In this document: positions 6,533-29,172 of the stretch, one piece after another
Numbering within the stretch: the first letter of the stretch is position 1
Layout: each line of letters begins with the position of its first letter
Virus record (IMG/VR): IMGVR_UViG_2734482533_000012
DNA: 40,498 bases
Source of the DNA: a virus
Taxonomy: Duplodnaviria > Heunggongvirae > Uroviricota > Caudoviricetes
Direction: 5' to 3' (one strand)
The notes under the pieces: model-generated
What the model was told of the DNA's origin: nothing
Seen by the model: the letters and a program-made list of their open reading frames with translations, nothing else
The model's database searches: none
Program-made: the position numbers and the translations under genes

Positions 6533-7495
6533 TCAACTAATCGCCTCAGCACTGGCTTTTGCGATCACGGCAGCCGGGGAATTTTTTTTTCTGGTTATCG
6601 TAGGTGCTTCATCTGCTGCGGTAATGCTCAATTGAACCTGGATAATGTCGCTATTACCCCCATCAGGCCATTCACCTGACACCTGAACCTTCGGGAAACT
6701 GAAAGTGTATGCCCCCTCTCCATTCGAAAGCGTGAAGCTGAACGGAACTGTTTCTCCAGTCAGTGTTTTACTCCAGATTTCCCACGCGGCTTTAGACCAT
6801 GAAAGCGTCACCGTACCGGACGGTGTAAAAGTAGTCGGAATATTTGCTCCTGCATAAGGCGAGCCAGTCCCGATACAACGCTGTGTCTGGAGTTTGTTAT
6901 CGAACTGAATATCAAAACTGTCGATACAAAAACCGTTACCTCCGGCAACACCATTCAGGCTTACTGCTGAAACCTCCTTAAACGAATAACGTAGCTTTCC
7001 TGCACTATCCACAGGTTCGCCTTTGATAAAATTCGTATCATCGGCCTTTGATTCCCAGTCCAGTCCGGCAAAGGTTACGGTCGCTGTAATATCGCCGTCG
7101 TTAGGGATCTGCATTTTCCATGAGCCAACCTGCGCTCCTCTGACGACAGAGGCAATTCCGACATCGGACGCATAGGTCGCCAGAGAAAATGTTATTCGCT
7201 CATTCCCCATTGTCAGAGAATCGCCTGACCATTCCGCGCCGAAACAGGATGCAAGAAAATCATCATGTTGACCCCAGCGAAATTTGGTACCAACATCACC
7301 GCCGACATCCACAGTGCCAGGCGTCGCCCCCTGAGCCATCCGGGAGCCACCAATCTCATTATTTTCGCCTTTATTCTGGGTGGGTTTTACTCCCCAGCTT
7401 GTGCGTTTTAATAAACTCCAGTCACCACTTGCTGGCGTAGTGCCTGCAACCGTCTCCCGGATAAATGCCGAGATAACCTTTGCACCTGAACTCAC
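6533..7495 (-). CDS. Major tail (tube) protein
   Basis: 320-aa ORF directly upstream of the chaperone/tape measure block; Gly/Thr/Ser-rich composition typical of tail tube proteins. Assigned by position. Confidence 0.65.
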   Translation of the reverse strand: MSSGAKVISAFIRETVAGTTPASGDWSLLKRTSWGVKPTQNKGENNEIGGSRMAQGATPGTVDVGGDVGTKFRWGQHDDFLASCFGAEWSGDSLTMGNERITFSLATYASDVGIASVVRGAQVGSWKMQIPNDGDITATVTFAGLDWESKADDTNFIKGEPVDSAGKLRYSFKEVSAVSLNGVAGGNGFCIDSFDIQFDNKLQTQRCIGTGSPYAGANIPTTFTPSGTVTLSWSKAAWEIWSKTLTGETVPFSFTLSNGEGAYTFSFPKVQVSGEWPDGGNSDIIQVQLSITAADEAPTITRKKNSPAAVIAKASAEAIS

Positions 7496-7521
7496 AGGAG
7501 CCTCCTATGTCATTAATTGCG

Positions 7522-7914
7522 CTAGAGCGCGCGATATGGAATTTGAAGATTAAGCTGGAACCAGCCATTCTTTTCGCCAACGGCTATTGAGGAAACAGCC
7601 TGGTAACTGAGACGATCGTCATCCTGAAACTCAAACAGTTCCCGCAATTTATCGGCTGTCTCAGTAATGAGTTTTGAACCAGAACCTGCGGGGACAAATA
7701 ACTGAATAATGATTATCCCCGTGCGATAAACAACCGGCCCCGCGCCAATTTCATTAACTCCAGCCTGCCCGGGAATATTACTTAACCGCGCCCAGATTAA
7801 CTTACCGGAAGGATCGAACGTTGGCCCGTTCGGATACAATACGTCTTTTCCATCAATAATCGTCTGTGCCGTCATTCTGGAAATAACCGTATTTCTGATT
7901 TCAGTAAACTTCAT
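7522..7914 (-). CDS. Tail completion / tail terminator protein (by position)
   Basis: 130-aa ORF immediately upstream of the major tail gene. Confidence 0.45.
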   Translation of the reverse strand: MKFTEIRNTVISRMTAQTIIDGKDVLYPNGPTFDPSGKLIWARLSNIPGQAGVNEIGAGPVVYRTGIIIIQLFVPAGSGSKLITETADKLRELFEFQDDDRLSYQAVSSIAVGEKNGWFQLNLQIPYRAL

Positions 7915-8291
7915 TTGTAAGCCTGTAAAACACCATGAAAAGCGTTGGCATACACGCCAGTTGGCGCTTGTTGTGAATGACCGTTTTCAAGAGCCTCTGC
8001 ATAAGGAAGGTTATTCTGGATATAAATAACCCCGTAATTTGCAGCTTTCGAAATAACCCCGATCCCACGCTGAACAGCAATCGTACCGTTCGGATCCACG
8101 TTATCAGATATACCAAAATCGGGATGCTGTAACGACACCAGGTTGTTATTTCTGAAACGTCCGGTATCAACCGGAGCAGCAATATCAATAGCAGTAAGAA
8201 TCTGCATAGCGATGTAGCGAATCTTCAGCCCTACATCTTCCTCAATCATCCCGGCAAATATTGACGGTTCTATATCCCATGCCTTTGCCAT
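7911..8291 (-). CDS. Head-tail joining protein (possibly HK97 gp10-like)
   Basis: 126-aa ORF in the head-tail connector block; 4-bp overlap with the downstream gene. Confidence 0.45.
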   Translation of the reverse strand: MAKAWDIEPSIFAGMIEEDVGLKIRYIAMQILTAIDIAAPVDTGRFRNNNLVSLQHPDFGISDNVDPNGTIAVQRGIGVISKAANYGVIYIQNNLPYAEALENGHSQQAPTGVYANAFHGVLQAYK

Positions 8292-8675
8292 TTACGCTCT
8301 CCTTAACTGGATAGAGTAAACTGATGCGGAAGGATCTACACTTGCTGTAATTACCTCGTATCGTTGTAACTGCCTTGATACAGGATCATAAATCTCAATA
8401 ATATGGTCGACAGCTGGTTTATCCGTAACCTCGCATACCAGAGCGGTTAATTTAAGGTCACCATGCAAAATATTAATCCCATCAATTCTGCCCAGCTTAT
8501 AACGTGTCAACACGCCTCGCCCGGTATAGATTGCGGTGGATTCGCCGCCAGTTTCCGTCACAGGATCCCAGTGCCGGTGCGTAACGTAAGAACCAGAAAA
8601 ATCACTCACGGCGTCCGCTAAATCCTCATCAAAAGCAGCGGCAACCTCTGACTGAATCTCTTCACGAAGCCCCAT
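8292..8675 (-). CDS. Head-tail adaptor / head closure protein (by position)
   Basis: 127-aa ORF in the head-tail connector block. Confidence 0.45.
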   Translation of the reverse strand: MGLREEIQSEVAAAFDEDLADAVSDFSGSYVTHRHWDPVTETGGESTAIYTGRGVLTRYKLGRIDGINILHGDLKLTALVCEVTDKPAVDHIIEIYDPVSRQLQRYEVITASVDPSASVYSIQLRRA

Positions 8676-9070
8676 TATCCCCCCCTCACAACCCTGACTT
8701 GTGAGCGACTAAGTCCGTACGGTTTCAGCAGTGCTATCGCAAGCTGTAAATCGGGTTCAAGCAATGCAGTGCTGTTTGCTGGCAACTCAGAAAATGATTT
8801 CGATACACTGACCCCGTCAGCCGACACGGCTTTACTGATAACAACGCCAGAATCATTTTTCTGCTGAAACAACTTACCGAATGAGGCAATTCTGGCTGCA
8901 TATGCTCCCGCAAGTTTTACCTCTTCCGGAATACGGGATGGGTTAATTTTCAGGTTGAAGCCATTAAGCCAGGCATTAGCCATTAAAACAGCTTTATTTT
9001 TAGCGTTCTCACTCGTCCAGGCGTTCCCAAACGCATTATCAACGTCATCACAGGTCACGTAAGTGATCAT
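8675..9070 (-). CDS. Head-tail connector protein (by position)
   Basis: 131-aa ORF; start overlaps the stop of the downstream gene. Confidence 0.45.
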   Translation of the reverse strand: MITYVTCDDVDNAFGNAWTSENAKNKAVLMANAWLNGFNLKINPSRIPEEVKLAGAYAARIASFGKLFQQKNDSGVVISKAVSADGVSVSKSFSELPANSTALLEPDLQLAIALLKPYGLSRSQVRVVRGG

Positions 9071-23904: not shown

Positions 23905-24191
23905 AAATGACCTTTCTTTCTCCAGATTTCTTGTGTGCGAAAAACCCCTTCAGCATGCATCAGGCGCAATTCTTCTTTGGTGTAATCGCTGGTTTTTACC
24001 CGCCCGTCGATTAGATCGTGGCATGAGCTACAGGCTATCGCCGCCTGCATATCATGTGGTTTTGTCGCTGTTCCGCACGTCCCCGCCAGCCTGTAATGCG
24101 CCAGCACAGAGGTTTCGGGATTGTGATTGCAGTAGCCAGGGATTCTGATCTGGCACATCTGGCCTTTAGCCGCTTTACGTAAATTCACCAT
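23901..24191 (-). CDS. ybcO: YbcO-like protein (DUF1364, Cys-rich putative nuclease)
   Basis: 96 aa with ...CQIRIPGYCN..NPETSVLAH.RL.G.CGT.TKP.D..A.IACSSCHD..D... resembling DLP12 YbcO from memory. Confidence 0.6.
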   Translation of the reverse strand: MVNLRKAAKGQMCQIRIPGYCNHNPETSVLAHYRLAGTCGTATKPHDMQAAIACSSCHDLIDGRVKTSDYTKEELRLMHAEGVFRTQEIWRKKGHL

Positions 24192-24790
24192 TACGCAAAC
24201 TCCAGTAGTTGTGCGGCCACATTTTCAACTTCCTCCTGAGAGGAGAATTTACGGAACAGAATCCAGTTCCACAGCACATTCAGTACAGATTTATAAACCT
24301 GCTGAAACTCGACTTCGTCCATATTCGCAAAAGCGATGGATTTTGCCCGACGCCCACGGCTACCGTCCGGATAAATATGCTCGGTGTAAAATCCGGCCTG
24401 AATGGTTACCCACTCGCGGAAAGCCTCAAACGACTTTAGCAACGCCGTATCCCGGGTTCTACGAGTCGCAACGGTGTTAAGGTATTGCTCTGCGGCATCA
24501 CTCAGGGCTGGCGTGTGTTCCCGACCAACTGATTCGCACAGGTAATCAACGAAACCAGACAGCAGTTCTCGTTCGCGAGGCGTGATCGCCCCACCGACCG
24601 GAGTCCAGTAATCGAATCCCAGTTGCAGGAGTTTGAAAAAACGCTTGTGGAATGCGTAGTTACGCACACGCTTAAAGTCTGCGTGTATCCACTCACCTAT
24701 TTTGATTTGATGCAGAAAATCGCAACTCTCCGGCGTCGCCGGGAGAAGTAAACCAGAAGAGGTTTGTTTGACCAGTTGTATATGCGCCAT
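24191..24790 (-). CDS. Hypothetical nin-region phage protein (199 aa)
   Basis: ORF with phage-backbone GC content, co-directional with and overlapping the ybcO-like gene. Confidence 0.5.
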   Translation of the reverse strand: MAHIQLVKQTSSGLLLPATPESCDFLHQIKIGEWIHADFKRVRNYAFHKRFFKLLQLGFDYWTPVGGAITPRERELLSGFVDYLCESVGREHTPALSDAAEQYLNTVATRRTRDTALLKSFEAFREWVTIQAGFYTEHIYPDGSRGRRAKSIAFANMDEVEFQQVYKSVLNVLWNWILFRKFSSQEEVENVAAQLLEFA

Positions 24791-25603
24791 TTCTCAATCT
24801 CTCGATGGCGCAGCGCAGCAGATGCCAGTTGTTCAGGCTGACGAATAAAGTATAAATAAACTGGCTATGGTGTAAAGCCCCACATAGCATGAACAAACAC
24901 TACATATCAAATAGCTGGTACAAGGATAGAAATACGACACTTATTATTAAAAACGATTAGATAAATTACATTTTAATGTTATGCAAAAGTTCTTTTTTAT
25001 CATAACATTTCAATAAAAGCATTACAGATGCAATCATCCCGTCATCATCAATTATTTAAGGTGGTTAAACATGGAAAATAACAAGTTCGCACATCTCGCT
25101 CCTTTTTTATCCGTAATCCTTTTCGCTTGTTGTTTTATATGGGCATTATTTTTATAAAGTAGCCACATGATAAGTTGCTGGAATCATATTTCCCACTCAA
25201 GTCATTAACATTTGATAAGATATATCTAAAAGGACGCCTTTACATTATTTATGCGTATATAATTTATTTATATACACAGTAAAGGTATCCTGGGAAAATA
25301 TTTATCGTTAAAAAATACATCATAAATAATTAAGCTGAAATTTCAGAACACAACTAATACACACAATAAGGTTCAGTAACAGTAATCTATGTGGACTACA
25401 TCGAGATTTTTTGATTAAACTTTAATAACTTATTCCTAACACACAGAATGCATAAACTAAAAGTAAAACAAATAGTTATACGAAAAACAACCATATTTAT
25501 TCTATCTTCTCCTCTAATCAACATATCAATTATGTGTTTCATAACAGCTTGACATAACCCTCCAAAAGATGCATTTTTAATGCATGTTTTGGAGGAGGTG
25601 GTT

Positions 25604-25942
25604 ATGACACACAAGAGAATTCCTAAAGATTGGGTAATCAAACGCTCAACTCCGTTCTTCACAAAAGAGAACGTACCTTCAGCGTTATTAACACATCATA
25701 ATACAGCAGCAGGTGTTTTTGGGCAGTTGTGCGTAATGGAAGGCACTGTAACATATTATGGTTTTACTGATGAGAATGCTACTGAACCGGAGATAAAAGT
25801 AGTCATTAATGCTGGCGCTTTTGCAACAAGCCCACCACAATACTGGCACCGTGTTGAACTAAGCGATGATGCTCAGTTTAATATTAACTTTTGGGTCGCT
25901 CCAGACTTTTCGGGCGAAAAAGTCTATAGCACCAAAAAATAG
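25604..25942 (+). CDS. YeaR-like DUF1971 protein (TehB N-terminal domain-like)
   Basis: 112 aa from ATG with a strong GGAGGAGGTG ribosome-binding site; ...RSTPFFTKENVPSALLTHHNTAAGVFGQLCVMEGTVTYYGFTDE...QYWHRVE...FNINFWVAP resembles E. coli YeaR from memory. Opposite strand to the surrounding phage genes, in an AT-rich island. Confidence 0.65.
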   Translation: MTHKRIPKDWVIKRSTPFFTKENVPSALLTHHNTAAGVFGQLCVMEGTVTYYGFTDENATEPEIKVVINAGAFATSPPQYWHRVELSDDAQFNINFWVAPDFSGEKVYSTKK

Positions 25943-25971
25943 ATGATCATATTAAAAATGCTTTAACAGTC

Positions 25972-26009
25972 AGACCCGGCAGGGCTATCCCCGACGGGTC
26001 TCATTTTTG
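25972..26009 (+). terminator. Intrinsic terminator after the yeaR-like gene
   Basis: AGACCCGGCAGGGCTATCCCCGACGGGTCT hairpin followed by CATTTTTG, about 30 bp after the stop. Confidence 0.5.
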
Positions 26010-26562
26010 TAAATATATTGGTTCTACATTGACAGGAGACTTCAACCATAAGAAGTAATCTGAATACTTGAGCAATAAATTTACTTAAGATTAATGAGCG
26101 CACCTTGCCGGACAAAGATAAACCAAGGTAACACCTTTTTTCTAGCCAGTATGTAATCAATCAGAAAGCCGCTCCATAAGAACAACAGCAAGACAATAAA
26201 TTGCCATTACAGCCGCAATAGCCAGCGCACATTTGAGAACCAGCACGACAACCCCCTGTATTAGACGCACACCAGTCCTGATAAATATGAGGCTGTCTCG
26301 TCAGTGATTCAATACAACTATTGGGTATAGTTTCTGTGATTTTATTCTGTAGAAATGGAACACAACAACCAGTCACCACCAGCACTTCCTTAAATGCTCT
26401 AAGTCAGAAACAAGCCAACATTTTAGTCCGCTTTGAGCGATCTGCAGACATTGCTAGCAGCCTTCTGTGTGAATTCTCAGGGAGCAGGTCGGCATAGCAT
26501 CACGTTGAGGCTCTTACCCTACTTGTTCACACCAACCCTAACTCCACAGACTGATTCATAAA

Positions 26563-27564
26563 TTAGTAATCTGCGTGTTTCGCACTTTTCAGAAATGCTT
26601 TCATATTTTCATTAGGTCGCTCAATTTCGAAGTTACTTCCATATAACTCTTGTAATTTTGGCCATAACTTACTTAATAACCCTCTCCTGCGATAAAATGG
26701 ATGTATCCAAACGGTAGATAGGTACGGAGAATTTGCATTTGAATTGTTTATTGTGACCAGCCCAACTAAACATTGTCGATAACCACTATTATCCATTGAT
26801 TGTATTTCTTCGACGAATGGATACGCGATTACATCAGTCCAACCATGATCGGTTGTATCCCATTGCATTCCGTCATGACATTCCTTCGACTGATAGCGGC
26901 GTAAAGCTACACACGCGAGCTTTTGCCAATCTGGAGAATTAATTGTGATCTCTTCATCGTATGACGCGCCTATTGGAGCGGGTATTGGTCTGATTAATCC
27001 AGCATGGCATTCATCATAGAACTTCATGTTTCCCTCAGAAACGTTGTGTACGTTGGGTTGCTCCATGTGTGCGCCATTCAAAAATAGCTCTGATAGTAGT
27101 GTATCTACACTGTAATCTTTATTGATTATTGTCGGCTTAGAGTTTTTCTTATTAAGGCCGCGAGTAACGATTTTTTGATCAATGTTAACAACATGGAATA
27201 ATCCGTCGGGGAGGCTAGCGAACCACGATGGGGCATCGGACCAGAATAGCATGCCTTTTGTACTTCTTAAGAGTTTAATTAAGTTAATACAAGCTTCTTC
27301 ACTAGTCTTGCCGTTGATGCGAAGTATGTTAGGACTAAAGTAATATTCATCCATATCAGGGAATGCAGCTTCGCAAAACTCCTGTACATAATTTAGCACC
27401 TGGATTCTACAGAGATCATCATAGCTGGTAATAACTAAGGGGGTATCTTCATTACTATTATGATTATCAATAATGCAATCTATAGCGAGACTTACTGCTT
27501 TGCGTATCACTTCAGTTGAATCTAACGACTCTAAAAATTTTGTCTTTCGTGTGCGAATATCCAT
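26563..27564 (-). CDS. Hypothetical protein B (333 aa), second gene of the AT-rich accessory operon; weak GNAT-like C-terminal motif
   Basis: ORF 15 bp downstream of gene A; C-terminal ...YLSTVWIHPFYRRRGLLSKLWPKL... loosely resembles GNAT motif A; no recognisable phage function. Confidence 0.6.
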   Translation of the reverse strand: MDIRTRKTKFLESLDSTEVIRKAVSLAIDCIIDNHNSNEDTPLVITSYDDLCRIQVLNYVQEFCEAAFPDMDEYYFSPNILRINGKTSEEACINLIKLLRSTKGMLFWSDAPSWFASLPDGLFHVVNIDQKIVTRGLNKKNSKPTIINKDYSVDTLLSELFLNGAHMEQPNVHNVSEGNMKFYDECHAGLIRPIPAPIGASYDEEITINSPDWQKLACVALRRYQSKECHDGMQWDTTDHGWTDVIAYPFVEEIQSMDNSGYRQCLVGLVTINNSNANSPYLSTVWIHPFYRRRGLLSKLWPKLQELYGSNFEIERPNENMKAFLKSAKHADY

Positions 27565-27579
27565 GTATGACCTGCGCTA

Positions 27580-28602
27580 TTAAAATTCATGAATGAACGG
27601 TTTGTCATCTGGTTGCAAAATGGTGGTTTTATTCGTTGCTACATTTAAACTGTTGTAGAGCATAATTGCCAGGTTCGATGCATTTTCAATCAGCGTTTCA
27701 AGATCCTGGTCTGTAATCACTACGAGGTTCCCTTCTTTATCCTTTCCACCACGATGCACTAAGTGATTTCGATTGAGGGTTGCCAATTCAATAGCTTCTA
27801 TCGGACAGTCTTTTTGTACTTTTATATCGAATGTAGCTTCATAGCGGTCGATTACCTTTTTAGTGCTATGCCAGCTTGCACTGATCAAGTGTTCCTTGAT
27901 TGACCTGATTAGCTCTCCCCTAATTTTCTCGATGGGTTCACCCTTGAAAGGCAACGCAGCAATATCTTTGCTTACTTTAAATTCAGTCTTACCTTTTTCT
28001 ATACAATTGGCTATGTAGACATCATCTTTCTCTATAGAATTAATGAATAGCTCAACATAAAGCGTTTCCAAAGCTGTAATAACATTCGTGTAGAGCAAAC
28101 TAAGCAAGTGGTTTTTTTGCTGTTGTTCAGTTTTATCTTTTGCAAGTTTTTTTATTTTATCGATATTATCAATGAATTTTAAATACGGATTACCGGAAGA
28201 CGTTACAGCGTCGTAGATATCATCATCGTACCAATCATCTATATTATTTGAGTTTCCAGACCAGTCAAAACATTGTGTTTGTAATTCATCTACTAATTCC
28301 TCAATATACTCAGATTTAACATATTGACCGAAGATGGATTGTAGTTCTTCGCTCGCATCATACGGCCCGCCATATATGTAAGCATAGCCACCTTCTCTAC
28401 TTTCATACGGACAAGCATTTGCCGGATCTTCAAAGTTTTCAAAGAACCAGTTTTTCATTACTTCGAGTTGATCTTTTTTGCTTATGTATTTTAAAGATTT
28501 TAGTGGAACTTTCTTTCCATTAACCTCGAAAACAATTTTCACGATGTAACGCTCCCTTGTATCAATTGCGCAACTATTATACCACAGCGAAATACAGGGC
28601 AT
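27580..28602 (-). CDS. Hypothetical protein A (341 aa), first gene of the AT-rich accessory operon; C-terminal Rx4H (HEPN-like) motif
   Basis: Start at ATG 28602 (MPCISLWYN...) with a perfect AAGGAGG ribosome-binding site 6 nt upstream; contains ...ATLNRNHLVHRGG... (R-N-x3-H); AT-rich relative to flanking genes. Confidence 0.6.
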   Translation of the reverse strand: MPCISLWYNSCAIDTRERYIVKIVFEVNGKKVPLKSLKYISKKDQLEVMKNWFFENFEDPANACPYESREGGYAYIYGGPYDASEELQSIFGQYVKSEYIEELVDELQTQCFDWSGNSNNIDDWYDDDIYDAVTSSGNPYLKFIDNIDKIKKLAKDKTEQQQKNHLLSLLYTNVITALETLYVELFINSIEKDDVYIANCIEKGKTEFKVSKDIAALPFKGEPIEKIRGELIRSIKEHLISASWHSTKKVIDRYEATFDIKVQKDCPIEAIELATLNRNHLVHRGGKDKEGNLVVITDQDLETLIENASNLAIMLYNSLNVATNKTTILQPDDKPFIHEF

Positions 28603-28740
28603 AACCTGCCTCCTTAAACTAACATACCATGAGCCAGCAATGTCCGCTATTGGCACAAAGCGGACAACCACGCTAGCTCTCCCCTGTGCCAGAAAAATGT
28701 CAATTTACATATGAACTAATGCTCTTTGATCTAGTAACGT

Positions 28741-29157
28741 CTATAAATACCGAAGATTTCCTTGATAAAATGCCAGTACACGTTTCATAACTTCACTCTT
28801 CCGGCACTCGCGACAGATTATGTTCTGACGCCTGTCATAGCGGCGTATTTCTCCGTCTGGTAATGACCAGATAAGGTCAGGATCAACCACAACCGTTTTT
28901 TTCACCTTTGCCCTGGATAGTTTTTTGCGGGCGTTTTTCCAATCCTTACGAGCCTGTTCAGACGGGAATAACCCATAGCCAGAGTTGTATACATCGCCAC
29001 TGGCAACCAACTCTCTGGCAAGAATGCTCATCAGATATCTTGTCGCACCTGTCTTGGCCTCCAGTTGCCTTAACGTCTCGCGCCCACTCTGGCGTACCAA
29101 CTCAACAACCTGCTCCTTAATTTTTTCACGCTCTTCCTGTGTAAAAACTTTTGCCAT
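28741..29157 (-). CDS. Hypothetical phage protein (138 aa, basic, CxxC-containing)
   Basis: Start at ATG 29157 (MAKVFTQEER...) with GGAGG upstream; follows the ydaW-like gene by 16 bp. Confidence 0.5.
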   Translation of the reverse strand: MAKVFTQEEREKIKEQVVELVRQSGRETLRQLEAKTGATRYLMSILARELVASGDVYNSGYGLFPSEQARKDWKNARKKLSRAKVKKTVVVDPDLIWSLPDGEIRRYDRRQNIICRECRKSEVMKRVLAFYQGNLRYL

Positions 29158-29172
29158 AAGCGCCTCCGGCAA

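Follow-up and report, generated by a model that had tools for sequence, protein, structure and literature searches.

What is the function of two adjoining AT-rich genes, A and B, that an earlier note on this DNA had taken for horizontally acquired prophage cargo and for an anti-phage system? ORF analysis of the window (the whole stretch of DNA that was analysed, 40,498 nucleotides) revealed both genes on the minus strand, 15 bp apart, within a Rac-type prophage. The site that they occupy is delimited by the following features.

28741..29172, minus strand: DUF977/Ren-like gene (ydaW homologue), left border of the cargo site (PF06163, E 3.3e-31; phrog_142, Ren-like exclusion protein)
28543..28740, minus strand: intergenic region upstream of A, native promoter region (published constructs carried the native promoter region as predicted)
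27565..27579, minus strand: A-B spacer of 15 bp (15 bp in 42 of 43 pair loci, 14 bp in 1)
24191..24790, minus strand: ninB (DUF1367), right border of the cargo site (PF07105, E 6.4e-98; phrog_319, NinB)

The low GC content noticed before was confirmed: it was 0.383 for positions 26563-28740, compared with 0.456 across the window and ~0.50 in the replication and ninB genes on either side, and ranked in the lowest 2% among equal-sized windows. The low-GC cargo as a whole extended over 24791-28740. In other Rac-like prophages, the same site was occupied by a nuclease plus Dcm, methyltransferases, Hok, or QueH. Rac-type prophages have a variable cargo site at the DUF977-ninB junction, and defence-like genes are found there in other strains as well. 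Horizontal acquisition as prophage cargo at a variable site is supported. It is literally true that K-12 Rac has nothing at this position; however, this comparison says little, since in the K-12 annotation ydaW is followed by rzpR, rzoR, and trkG, and nin-type genes are missing from this interval.

The locus, a cargo insertion flanked by the Ren-like DUF977 gene and by ninB, is very probably the anti-phage system that the DefensePredictor study (Science 2026, PMC13092281) published as DS-33 (working id "GNAT"). Its two genes were assigned as follows.

27580..28542, minus strand: gene A, DS-33A (WP_014639476.1), 320-aa HEPN defence effector, with a GTG start and a TAA stop at 27580-27582
26563..27564, minus strand: gene B, DS-33B allele with P289 (WP_000354966.1-type), 333 aa, accessory, one residue from the tested DS-33B

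A was identical to DS-33A as printed in Table S8 (320 of 320 residues), and WP_014639476.1 is annotated on 100%-identical DNA. B agreed with DS-33B (WP_000354965.1) at 332 of 333 residues, the window having P289 and the tested allele L289. From the start of A to the stop of B the locus measured 1980 bp, with the same order and span as CDS 6922-8901 of Table S6 (PMC13092281). This match came from supplementary tables; an accession search of the main-text literature returned nothing, and the main text of PMC13092281 neither discusses DS-33 by name nor gives a mechanism. Running PADLOC on the locus, as had been suggested, gave no meaningful match (PADLOC v2: nothing for B; for A, three weak matches at chance level, E 0.01-0.026).

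In the published plaque assays, which are marked "replicated TRUE," wild-type DS-33 conferred 2.6-3.8 logs of protection against T7, 2.4-3.5 against T3, 2.0-4.0 against Bas67, and 4.7-5.9 against Bas26 (Table S7, PMC13092281). Protection fell to <0.8 log in ΔHEPN and R258A, and ΔHEPN, which retains only B in its L289 form, gave none against T7, T5, T3, Bas67, and Bas26. Defence was kept in ΔGNAT (3.3-5 logs), where T7 protection even rose by ~1-1.7 logs in both replicates. These resistance data describe the published DS-33 construct (B with L289) and not the window's own allele pair. With this scope, they bear out the guess of an anti-phage system. The same tables show that it is not an undescribed one, as the earlier note had thought, and that experiments proposed there have been published: phage challenge of the cloned locus, with protection against four phages by the construct that carries the L289 allele of B, and mutation of the RNHLVH motif in the form of R258A, which abolishes defence. 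Since the literature already contains the system, its phenotype, and its key HEPN mutant, the finding as originally stated matters little.

That the pair is a fitness moron with no defence role, such as an acetyltransferase of metabolism or antibiotic modification beside an RNA-processing protein, is extremely improbable. Aminoglycoside and polyamine acetyltransferases are among the GNAT fold matches of B, and the want of a meaningful PADLOC v2 match would fit such a reading, but the replicated assays, in which a catalytic-site mutant lost protection, have already refuted it for A, and homologues reside in defence-island and mobile-element hotspot contexts.

The 320-aa reading frame of gene A is that of DS-33A. 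The earlier note had instead begun A farther upstream, within the following segment.

28543..28602, minus strand: in-frame 20-codon upstream extension of A, with ATG 28602 and AAGGAGG at 28609-28615, probably not the conserved start

The ribosome-binding site and the ATG are indeed present, but the resulting 341-aa start is probably not the conserved one and was rejected: 30 of 30 aligned homologues begin at MK(I/V)VF, equivalent to GTG 28542, and the extension is absent from all of them. RefSeq likewise annotates the 320-aa form, and in related loci the stop-to-stop frames, judged from ORF bounds, were open only ~5-11 codons upstream of the GTG-equivalent start. The best placement of A is therefore 27580-28542. 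An AAGGGAG at 28558-28552 lies 9 nt ahead of the GTG, and an extended -10-like TGgTATAAT was seen by eye at 28584-28576, inside the upstream extension. Consensus promoter and terminator scans, the former including 28543-28740, detected nothing above chance, and an Rfam scan of 24500-29000 yielded no credible match.

Within A, two HEPN-type domains and a putative catalytic motif were located.

28267..28467, minus strand: HEPN_RES_NTD1-like N-terminal domain of A, aa 26-92 (PF18870, 22.2 bits, E 1.9e-4)
27619..28125, minus strand: HEPN domain of A, probable RiboL-PSP-HEPN type, aa ~140-308
27751..27771, minus strand: putative catalytic motif R258-N-H-L-V-H263-R264 (Rx4H), with invariant residues and the published R258A mutant

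A has the all-alpha four-helix HEPN fold, with the Rx4-6H of the superfamily where the last core helix begins. The C-terminal motif claimed for it proved real: R258, H263 (the second histidine), and R264 (320-aa numbering) were invariant in 78 sequences, and the R258A phenotype shows that the arginine matters. In the region of the N-terminal domain, P45, G58, G59, P60, F71, and W94 were invariant among the 78 homologues. The window's A lies below the Pfam cut-offs for both of its domains; for PF18870 it scored 22.2 bits versus a cut-off of 27.4, while 72 of 78 homologues matched at E<=0.01, and for PF18735 it gave no match at E<=1, while 35 of 78 homologues matched at E<=0.01 (best 7e-11). For A and B, PHROGs returned only "unknown function" families, and an NCBIfam scan matched neither. 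The HEPN_RES_NTD1-HEPN family of A was present in 322 of 185,579 species genomes scanned and is distributed across many phyla.

These features suggest how DS-33 may work. A is the effector and is by itself enough for defence against T7, T3, Bas67, and Bas26 (published tables, PMC13092281). In a HEPN dimer, the Rx4H motifs most likely make up a composite RNase site, which would cut RNA once infection is sensed and thereby halt phage growth; the trigger is most likely sensed, or the nuclease restrained, by the HEPN_RES_NTD1-like domain. B is an accessory gene, not required for the tested defence, that may modulate A or act alone.

Whether A and B belong together was assessed from their occurrence across genomes. 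In 43 pair loci they co-diverged with the fixed 15-bp spacer over ~20% protein divergence, which hints at a functional link. Defence contexts recurred: the pair was also found in non-prophage defence islands adjoining Gabija-like and McrB-like genes. A and B do not always occur together: they were linked only in one Enterobacterales/Aeromonas clade, and each family also occurs alone in mobile-element or defence contexts. Homologues of A at 63-76% identity were without B, one of them in a P2-like prophage between gpA and ogr/portal, adjoining an ApeA_NTD1 protein, and another in a small integrase/AlpA element; clustering of neighbours in 80 genome loci revealed no conserved neighbour of A. Conversely, A was absent beside B at 86% identity and beside every B at <=56% identity. 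These A-less B genes had no conserved upstream partner; their neighbours varied and were often defence genes, including PD-Lambda-4_A (L145), a PDC-S06/PrrC-like ATPase 44 bp downstream (L117), HerA overlapping the B start (L120), a P4-type primase (L146), and a SUKH-1 immunity-type protein (L122). Judged by this distribution, the two genes are separable modules in evolutionary terms, which explains why ΔGNAT keeps defence, and an obligate two-gene system is not supported.

A more independent arrangement, in which A and B are separate single-gene cargo and B is a defence or counter-defence gene in its own right with a range beyond the five phages tested with ΔHEPN, is unlikely, though it deserves some weight. 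The defence genes beside A-less B and the defence islands that harbour the pair speak for it, as does the weakly positive DefensePredictor log-odds of B (1.08). However, B without A protected against none of those five phages, albeit as the L289 allele; the fixed spacing and co-divergence exceed what hitch-hiking needs; and the B family is small, comprising 66 clusters and 21 representatives at 50% identity.

The sequence of B itself bears on both its activity and the published test.

26980..27564, minus strand: N-terminal domain of B, aa 1-195, family-specific, with no known fold or family match
26566..26967, minus strand: GNAT-fold domain of B, aa ~200-333
26698..26700, minus strand: codon for P289 of B, sole residue differing from the tested allele (L289)

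A search of 1.84 billion representatives with the N-terminal domain of B found 21 proteins; the full-length matches were ~330-346 aa and B-like, and the others were mostly short fragments. Pfam and PDB sequence searches with this domain gave no match. The stretch resembling GNAT motif A, pointed out before, is real and lies inside the GNAT fold, with R292 invariant, G295 in 42 of 55 sequences, and the last G/A absent; PF00583 scored 19.9 bits versus a cut-off of 20.7. P289 was conserved in 54 of 54 B homologues and 43 of 43 pair loci. Because the tested B carried L289 at this invariant position of the GNAT core, the published test may have concealed a role of B, and the apparent dispensability of B is compatible with a role for the intact protein. 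We tentatively propose that intact B (P289) may be a working acetyltransferase that tunes or gates the HEPN effector or serves as a separate defence or counter-defence gene; this is a possibility rather than an expectation. If true, B would represent a new family of acetyltransferases that are associated with defence islands and have a unique N-terminal domain.

A stricter form of coupling, in which A and B are a toxin and its neutraliser and the GNAT protein acetylates or binds the HEPN nuclease and so silences it before infection, would be analogous to HEPN-MNT systems, where MNT AMPylates the HEPN toxin. This we consider improbable. The constant spacer and co-divergence in 43 loci would suit it, as would the increased T7 protection of ΔGNAT, the best fold matches of B to protein lysine acetyltransferases (HAT1, MYST, ESCO1, and ATAT), and the change at P289, which may have masked the loss of B. 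On the other hand, the ΔGNAT strain plated and defended, so that A is tolerated without B; close homologues of either gene live without the other; and B lacks the second glycine/alanine of GNAT motif A. An obligate A-B toxin-antitoxin pair was rejected on the grounds of this tolerance and the independent occurrence of both families. The preferred reading is DS-33 with A as its effector and B as an accessory gene.

Among known systems, DS-33 can be compared with PD-T4-2 (Vassallo et al. 2022, PMC9519451), which consists of a DUF262/ParB-like protein and a RiboL-PSP-type HEPN protein. Both are E. coli anti-phage systems, and the HEPN domain of A is probably of the same RiboL-PSP subfamily; the top HHpred match of PD-T4-2B was PF18735, and HHblits linked DS-33A to PD-T4-2_B (RiboL-PSP-HEPN cluster) with 96.1% probability over 55% of the protein (PMC13092281). 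However, A has an extra HEPN_RES_NTD1-like domain, and its partner is GNAT-fold and downstream, whereas that of PD-T4-2 is DUF262 in another arrangement. Membership in PD-T4-2 was rejected for this difference in partner and because the PADLOC PD-T4-2 models matched neither A nor B. The RiboL-PSP-HEPN family, defined by endoRNase L-PSP fusion and ParB operons (Anantharaman et al. 2013, PMC3710099), is distantly related to AbiD/AbiF (PMC3710099). By its sequence, A would share with it a bacterial Rx4-6H HEPN of the active type, and PF18735 links the two through 35 of 78 homologues of A; unlike that family, A has no L-PSP domain and no recurring ParB-like neighbour in 80 loci. HEPN-MNT type II/VII toxin-antitoxin systems are exemplified by Shewanella SO_3166/SO_3165 and by 5yep, 8xdj, and 7ae2. 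The present locus differs from them in that its partner gene is a GNAT and no minimal nucleotidyltransferase gene is present, that A is tolerated without its partner and occurs alone, and that A has 320 aa with an extra N-terminal domain versus ~130 aa. GNAT toxins of type II toxin-antitoxin systems (TacT, AtaT, ItaT, and KacT) are GNAT-only proteins of ~170 aa encoded with a small DNA-binding antitoxin gene. B shares with them a GNAT fold on a mobile element but has 333 aa, a large N-terminal domain, and no small DNA-binding antitoxin partner, and it is not known to be toxic. The window copy of DS-33 resides in a Rac-type prophage. It corresponds to the published system in both genes, their order, and their span, with A 100% and B 332/333 identical, and differs from it by having P289 where the tested WP_000354965.1 has L289.

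The AT-rich interval at 26563-28740, which the earlier note had proposed as acquired cargo encoding an undescribed two-gene defence system, holds two open reading frames on the minus strand, designated A (HEPN gene) and B (GNAT-fold gene):

ends at 27580, minus strand, reading frame of gene A (ORF calling)
26563-27564, minus strand, gene B (ATG start, 333 aa)

The start of B lies 15 bp from the stop of A. The compositional difference from the prophage backbone was confirmed: GC content of the interval is 0.383, compared to 0.456 for the whole window and ~0.50 for the flanking replication genes and ninB, and falls in the bottom 2% of equal-sized windows. The low-GC block spans 24791-28740 and is wider than the interval first noted.

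A search of supplementary tables turned up the RefSeq accession of A in the DefensePredictor paper (Science 2026; PMC13092281). In its Table S6, the working id "GNAT" denotes DS-33, which comprises proteins WP_014639476.1 and WP_000354965.1 and is flagged as defensive (TRUE) and categorized as "Predicted novel defense gene"; the paper also marks DS-33 as replicated (PMC13092281). Window protein A is identical to DS-33A, and B is one residue off DS-33B. The A/B locus is the same as DS-33 and already known, so it can no longer be called undescribed. DS-33 is not discussed by name in the main text, where it figures only in a tally of four validated HEPN-domain systems (PMC13092281). Plaque data are listed in Table S7 as log10 protection; wild-type ranges pool the initial screen and the replicates of 17 and 18 July 2024, and mutant rows comprise two replicates only (PMC13092281).

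Table. Log10 protection by DS-33 and mutants lacking A (ΔHEPN) or B (ΔGNAT) or carrying R258A in A (PMC13092281)
Construct; T7; T3; Bas67; Bas26; T5
Wild type; 2.6-3.8; 2.4-3.5; 2.0-4.0; 4.7-5.9; <0.8
ΔHEPN; ~0; ~0; ~0; 0.3-0.5; ~0-0.5
R258A; <0.8; <0.8; <0.8; <0.8; <0.8
ΔGNAT; 4.3-4.8; 3.3; 3.3-4.0; 4.9-5.0; 0.5-1.7

These values bear out the proposed anti-phage function of the locus. Since Table S7 includes ΔHEPN, R258A, and ΔGNAT, the experiments suggested in the earlier note had already been done: the phage panel, with protection against T7, T3, Bas67, and Bas26; the arginine mutant, with <0.8 log; and the single-gene deletions, of which ΔHEPN abolished protection and ΔGNAT retained it (PMC13092281). 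HEPN gene A is necessary for defence and still sufficient with B deleted. An obligate two-gene system is not supported, given the defence kept in ΔGNAT (PMC13092281) and the occurrence of the A and B families each alone.

Residue 289 of B is leucine in the tested DS-33B allele (WP_000354965.1) and proline in the window (codon 26698-26700). P289 was present in 43/43 pair loci (A and B side by side) and in 54/54 homologues not gapped at this position, and belongs to the GNAT-domain core W-I-H-P-F-Y-R-R-R-G. Because the tested B carried L289 at this family-invariant position, dispensability of the GNAT gene is solid for the defence by A, but says little about intact B. Protection against T7 rose by 1 to 1.7 logs in ΔGNAT in both replicates (PMC13092281), which could reflect a damping role of B or a mere expression effect.

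The earlier reading of A as a HEPN protein was supported by invariant R258 and H263, Pfam matches across the family, and the loss of defence in R258A (PMC13092281). Window A itself matched Pfam HEPN_RES_NTD1 weakly (22 bits), a model that matched 72 of 78 A homologues (RiboL-PSP-HEPN, 35/78); R264, W224, H225, and E159 were also invariant in the family alignment. A and its R258 were shown to be needed for defence. HEPN domains are Rx4-6H RNases acting as dimers (PMC3710099), and by analogy with this known behaviour A would cut RNA upon sensing infection, with its HEPN_RES_NTD1 domain probably serving as sensor or brake.

The start assigned to A in the earlier note, ATG 28602 with AAGGAGG ahead of it, exists in the sequence, but is argued against as the conserved start. 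MK(I/V)VF, corresponding to GTG 28542, forms the first residues of 30/30 aligned A homologues, the RefSeq annotation is the 320-aa form, the open frame upstream of the GTG-equivalent start spans only ~5 to 11 codons in diverged pair loci (ORF bounds), and validated DS-33 is annotated with a 320-aa CDS for A (PMC13092281). Two sequence features also speak against ATG 28602: AAGGGAG lies 9 nt ahead of GTG 28542, and TGgTATAAT, spotted by eye and unscored by the consensus promoter scan, lies inside the 20-codon extension.

The GNAT assignment of B was likewise judged right. Its predicted model had a pLDDT of 89.9, Pfam Acetyltransf_1 scored 19.9 bits, just below the cut-off of 20.7, and motif A was kept in part (R292 invariant, G295 in 42/55 sequences). 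The N-terminal 195 residues matched nothing known; 21 matches were obtained among 1.84 billion representative proteins, the full-length ones being B-like (~330 to 346 aa) and the remainder mostly short fragments.

Family A occurred in 322 of 185,579 species genomes scanned, from many phyla, and neighboured B only in near-identical A copies. Homologues with 63 to 76% identity (L004-L007) lacked B, and no other recurrent A neighbour was found across 80 loci. A-only homologues in Yersinia alsatica (L159, 3338-5945) and E. coli (L156-L158) occupied other mobile-element hotspots; one lay between the gpA and ogr/portal genes of a P2-like prophage, adjoining an ApeA_NTD1 protein, and another in a small integrase/AlpA/REP_ORF2 element. 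Family B is small (66 clusters, Gammaproteobacteria wherever named) and lacked A at three loci with 86% identity and at every locus with ≤56%. B-only loci L145, L117, L120, L146, and L122 adjoined PD-Lambda-4_A, a PDC-S06/PrrC-like AAA_13 ATPase, HerA, a P4-type D5/Toprim primase, and a SUKH-1 protein, respectively; the GNAT-domain B family thus has a defence-island association of its own. Within the two-gene clade, A (84 to 100% identity) and B (78 to 100%) co-diverged, and the spacer was 15 bp in 42/43 pair loci. The pair also occurred outside prophages, adjoining Gabija-like and McrB-like genes. Comparative genomics agrees with the published single-gene defence result. A 3.3-kb contig labelled Collinsella sp. 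MAG (L002) carried the E. coli pair at 100% identity, most likely as a binning contaminant.

The window is a Rac-type prophage. E. coli FORC_081 carries a 100%-identical copy inside a Rac-type gene series (intR, xisR, ralR, recT, recE, kilR, sieB, ydaT, ydaU, DnaC-like, DUF1627, DUF977, A, B, DUF1971, ninB, lysis genes), and ≥80% of the 2.4-kb query was found in 205/5426 complete E. coli genomes. In some E. coli genomes, multi-piece matches to the query overlapped annotated IS3-family transposases (IS2, ISSen4), suggesting that an IS element has inserted into or next to the locus. The DUF977-ninB junction is a variable cargo hotspot of Rac-like prophages: of the three prophages L153-L155, one carried an ATP-dependent nuclease together with Dcm and Hok at this site, another an ATPase plus an O-methyltransferase and Dcm, and the third QueH, HokD, and an HTH protein. 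That K-12 Rac has nothing here is true yet uninformative, as its annotation passes from ydaW to rzpR, rzoR, and trkG and includes no nin-type genes in this stretch.

The same low-GC block includes a further moron, the DUF1971 gene on the opposite strand (25580-25942, plus), with likeness to the TehB N-terminal domain (Pfam E 2.6e-26; NCBIfam TehB 5e-13). Between it and ninB, 24791-25579 is very AT-rich (GC 0.305) and had no open reading frame >88 aa and no Rfam match. A 28-aa hydrophobic open reading frame therein (25071-25157, plus; MENNKFAHLAPFLSVILFACCFIWALFL) looks like a small membrane toxin; Hok/Gef occupies the equivalent place in other Rac-like prophages.

Among known systems, the locus is neither a HEPN-MNT pair nor a GNAT-toxin TA module. 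PD-T4-2B of PD-T4-2 is a remote relative of the HEPN domain of A, but the partner there is DUF262, in contrast to the GNAT fold here, and the PD-T4-2 models gave no match to the A/B locus; membership in PD-T4-2 was therefore ruled out. The system sharing this locus is DS-33.
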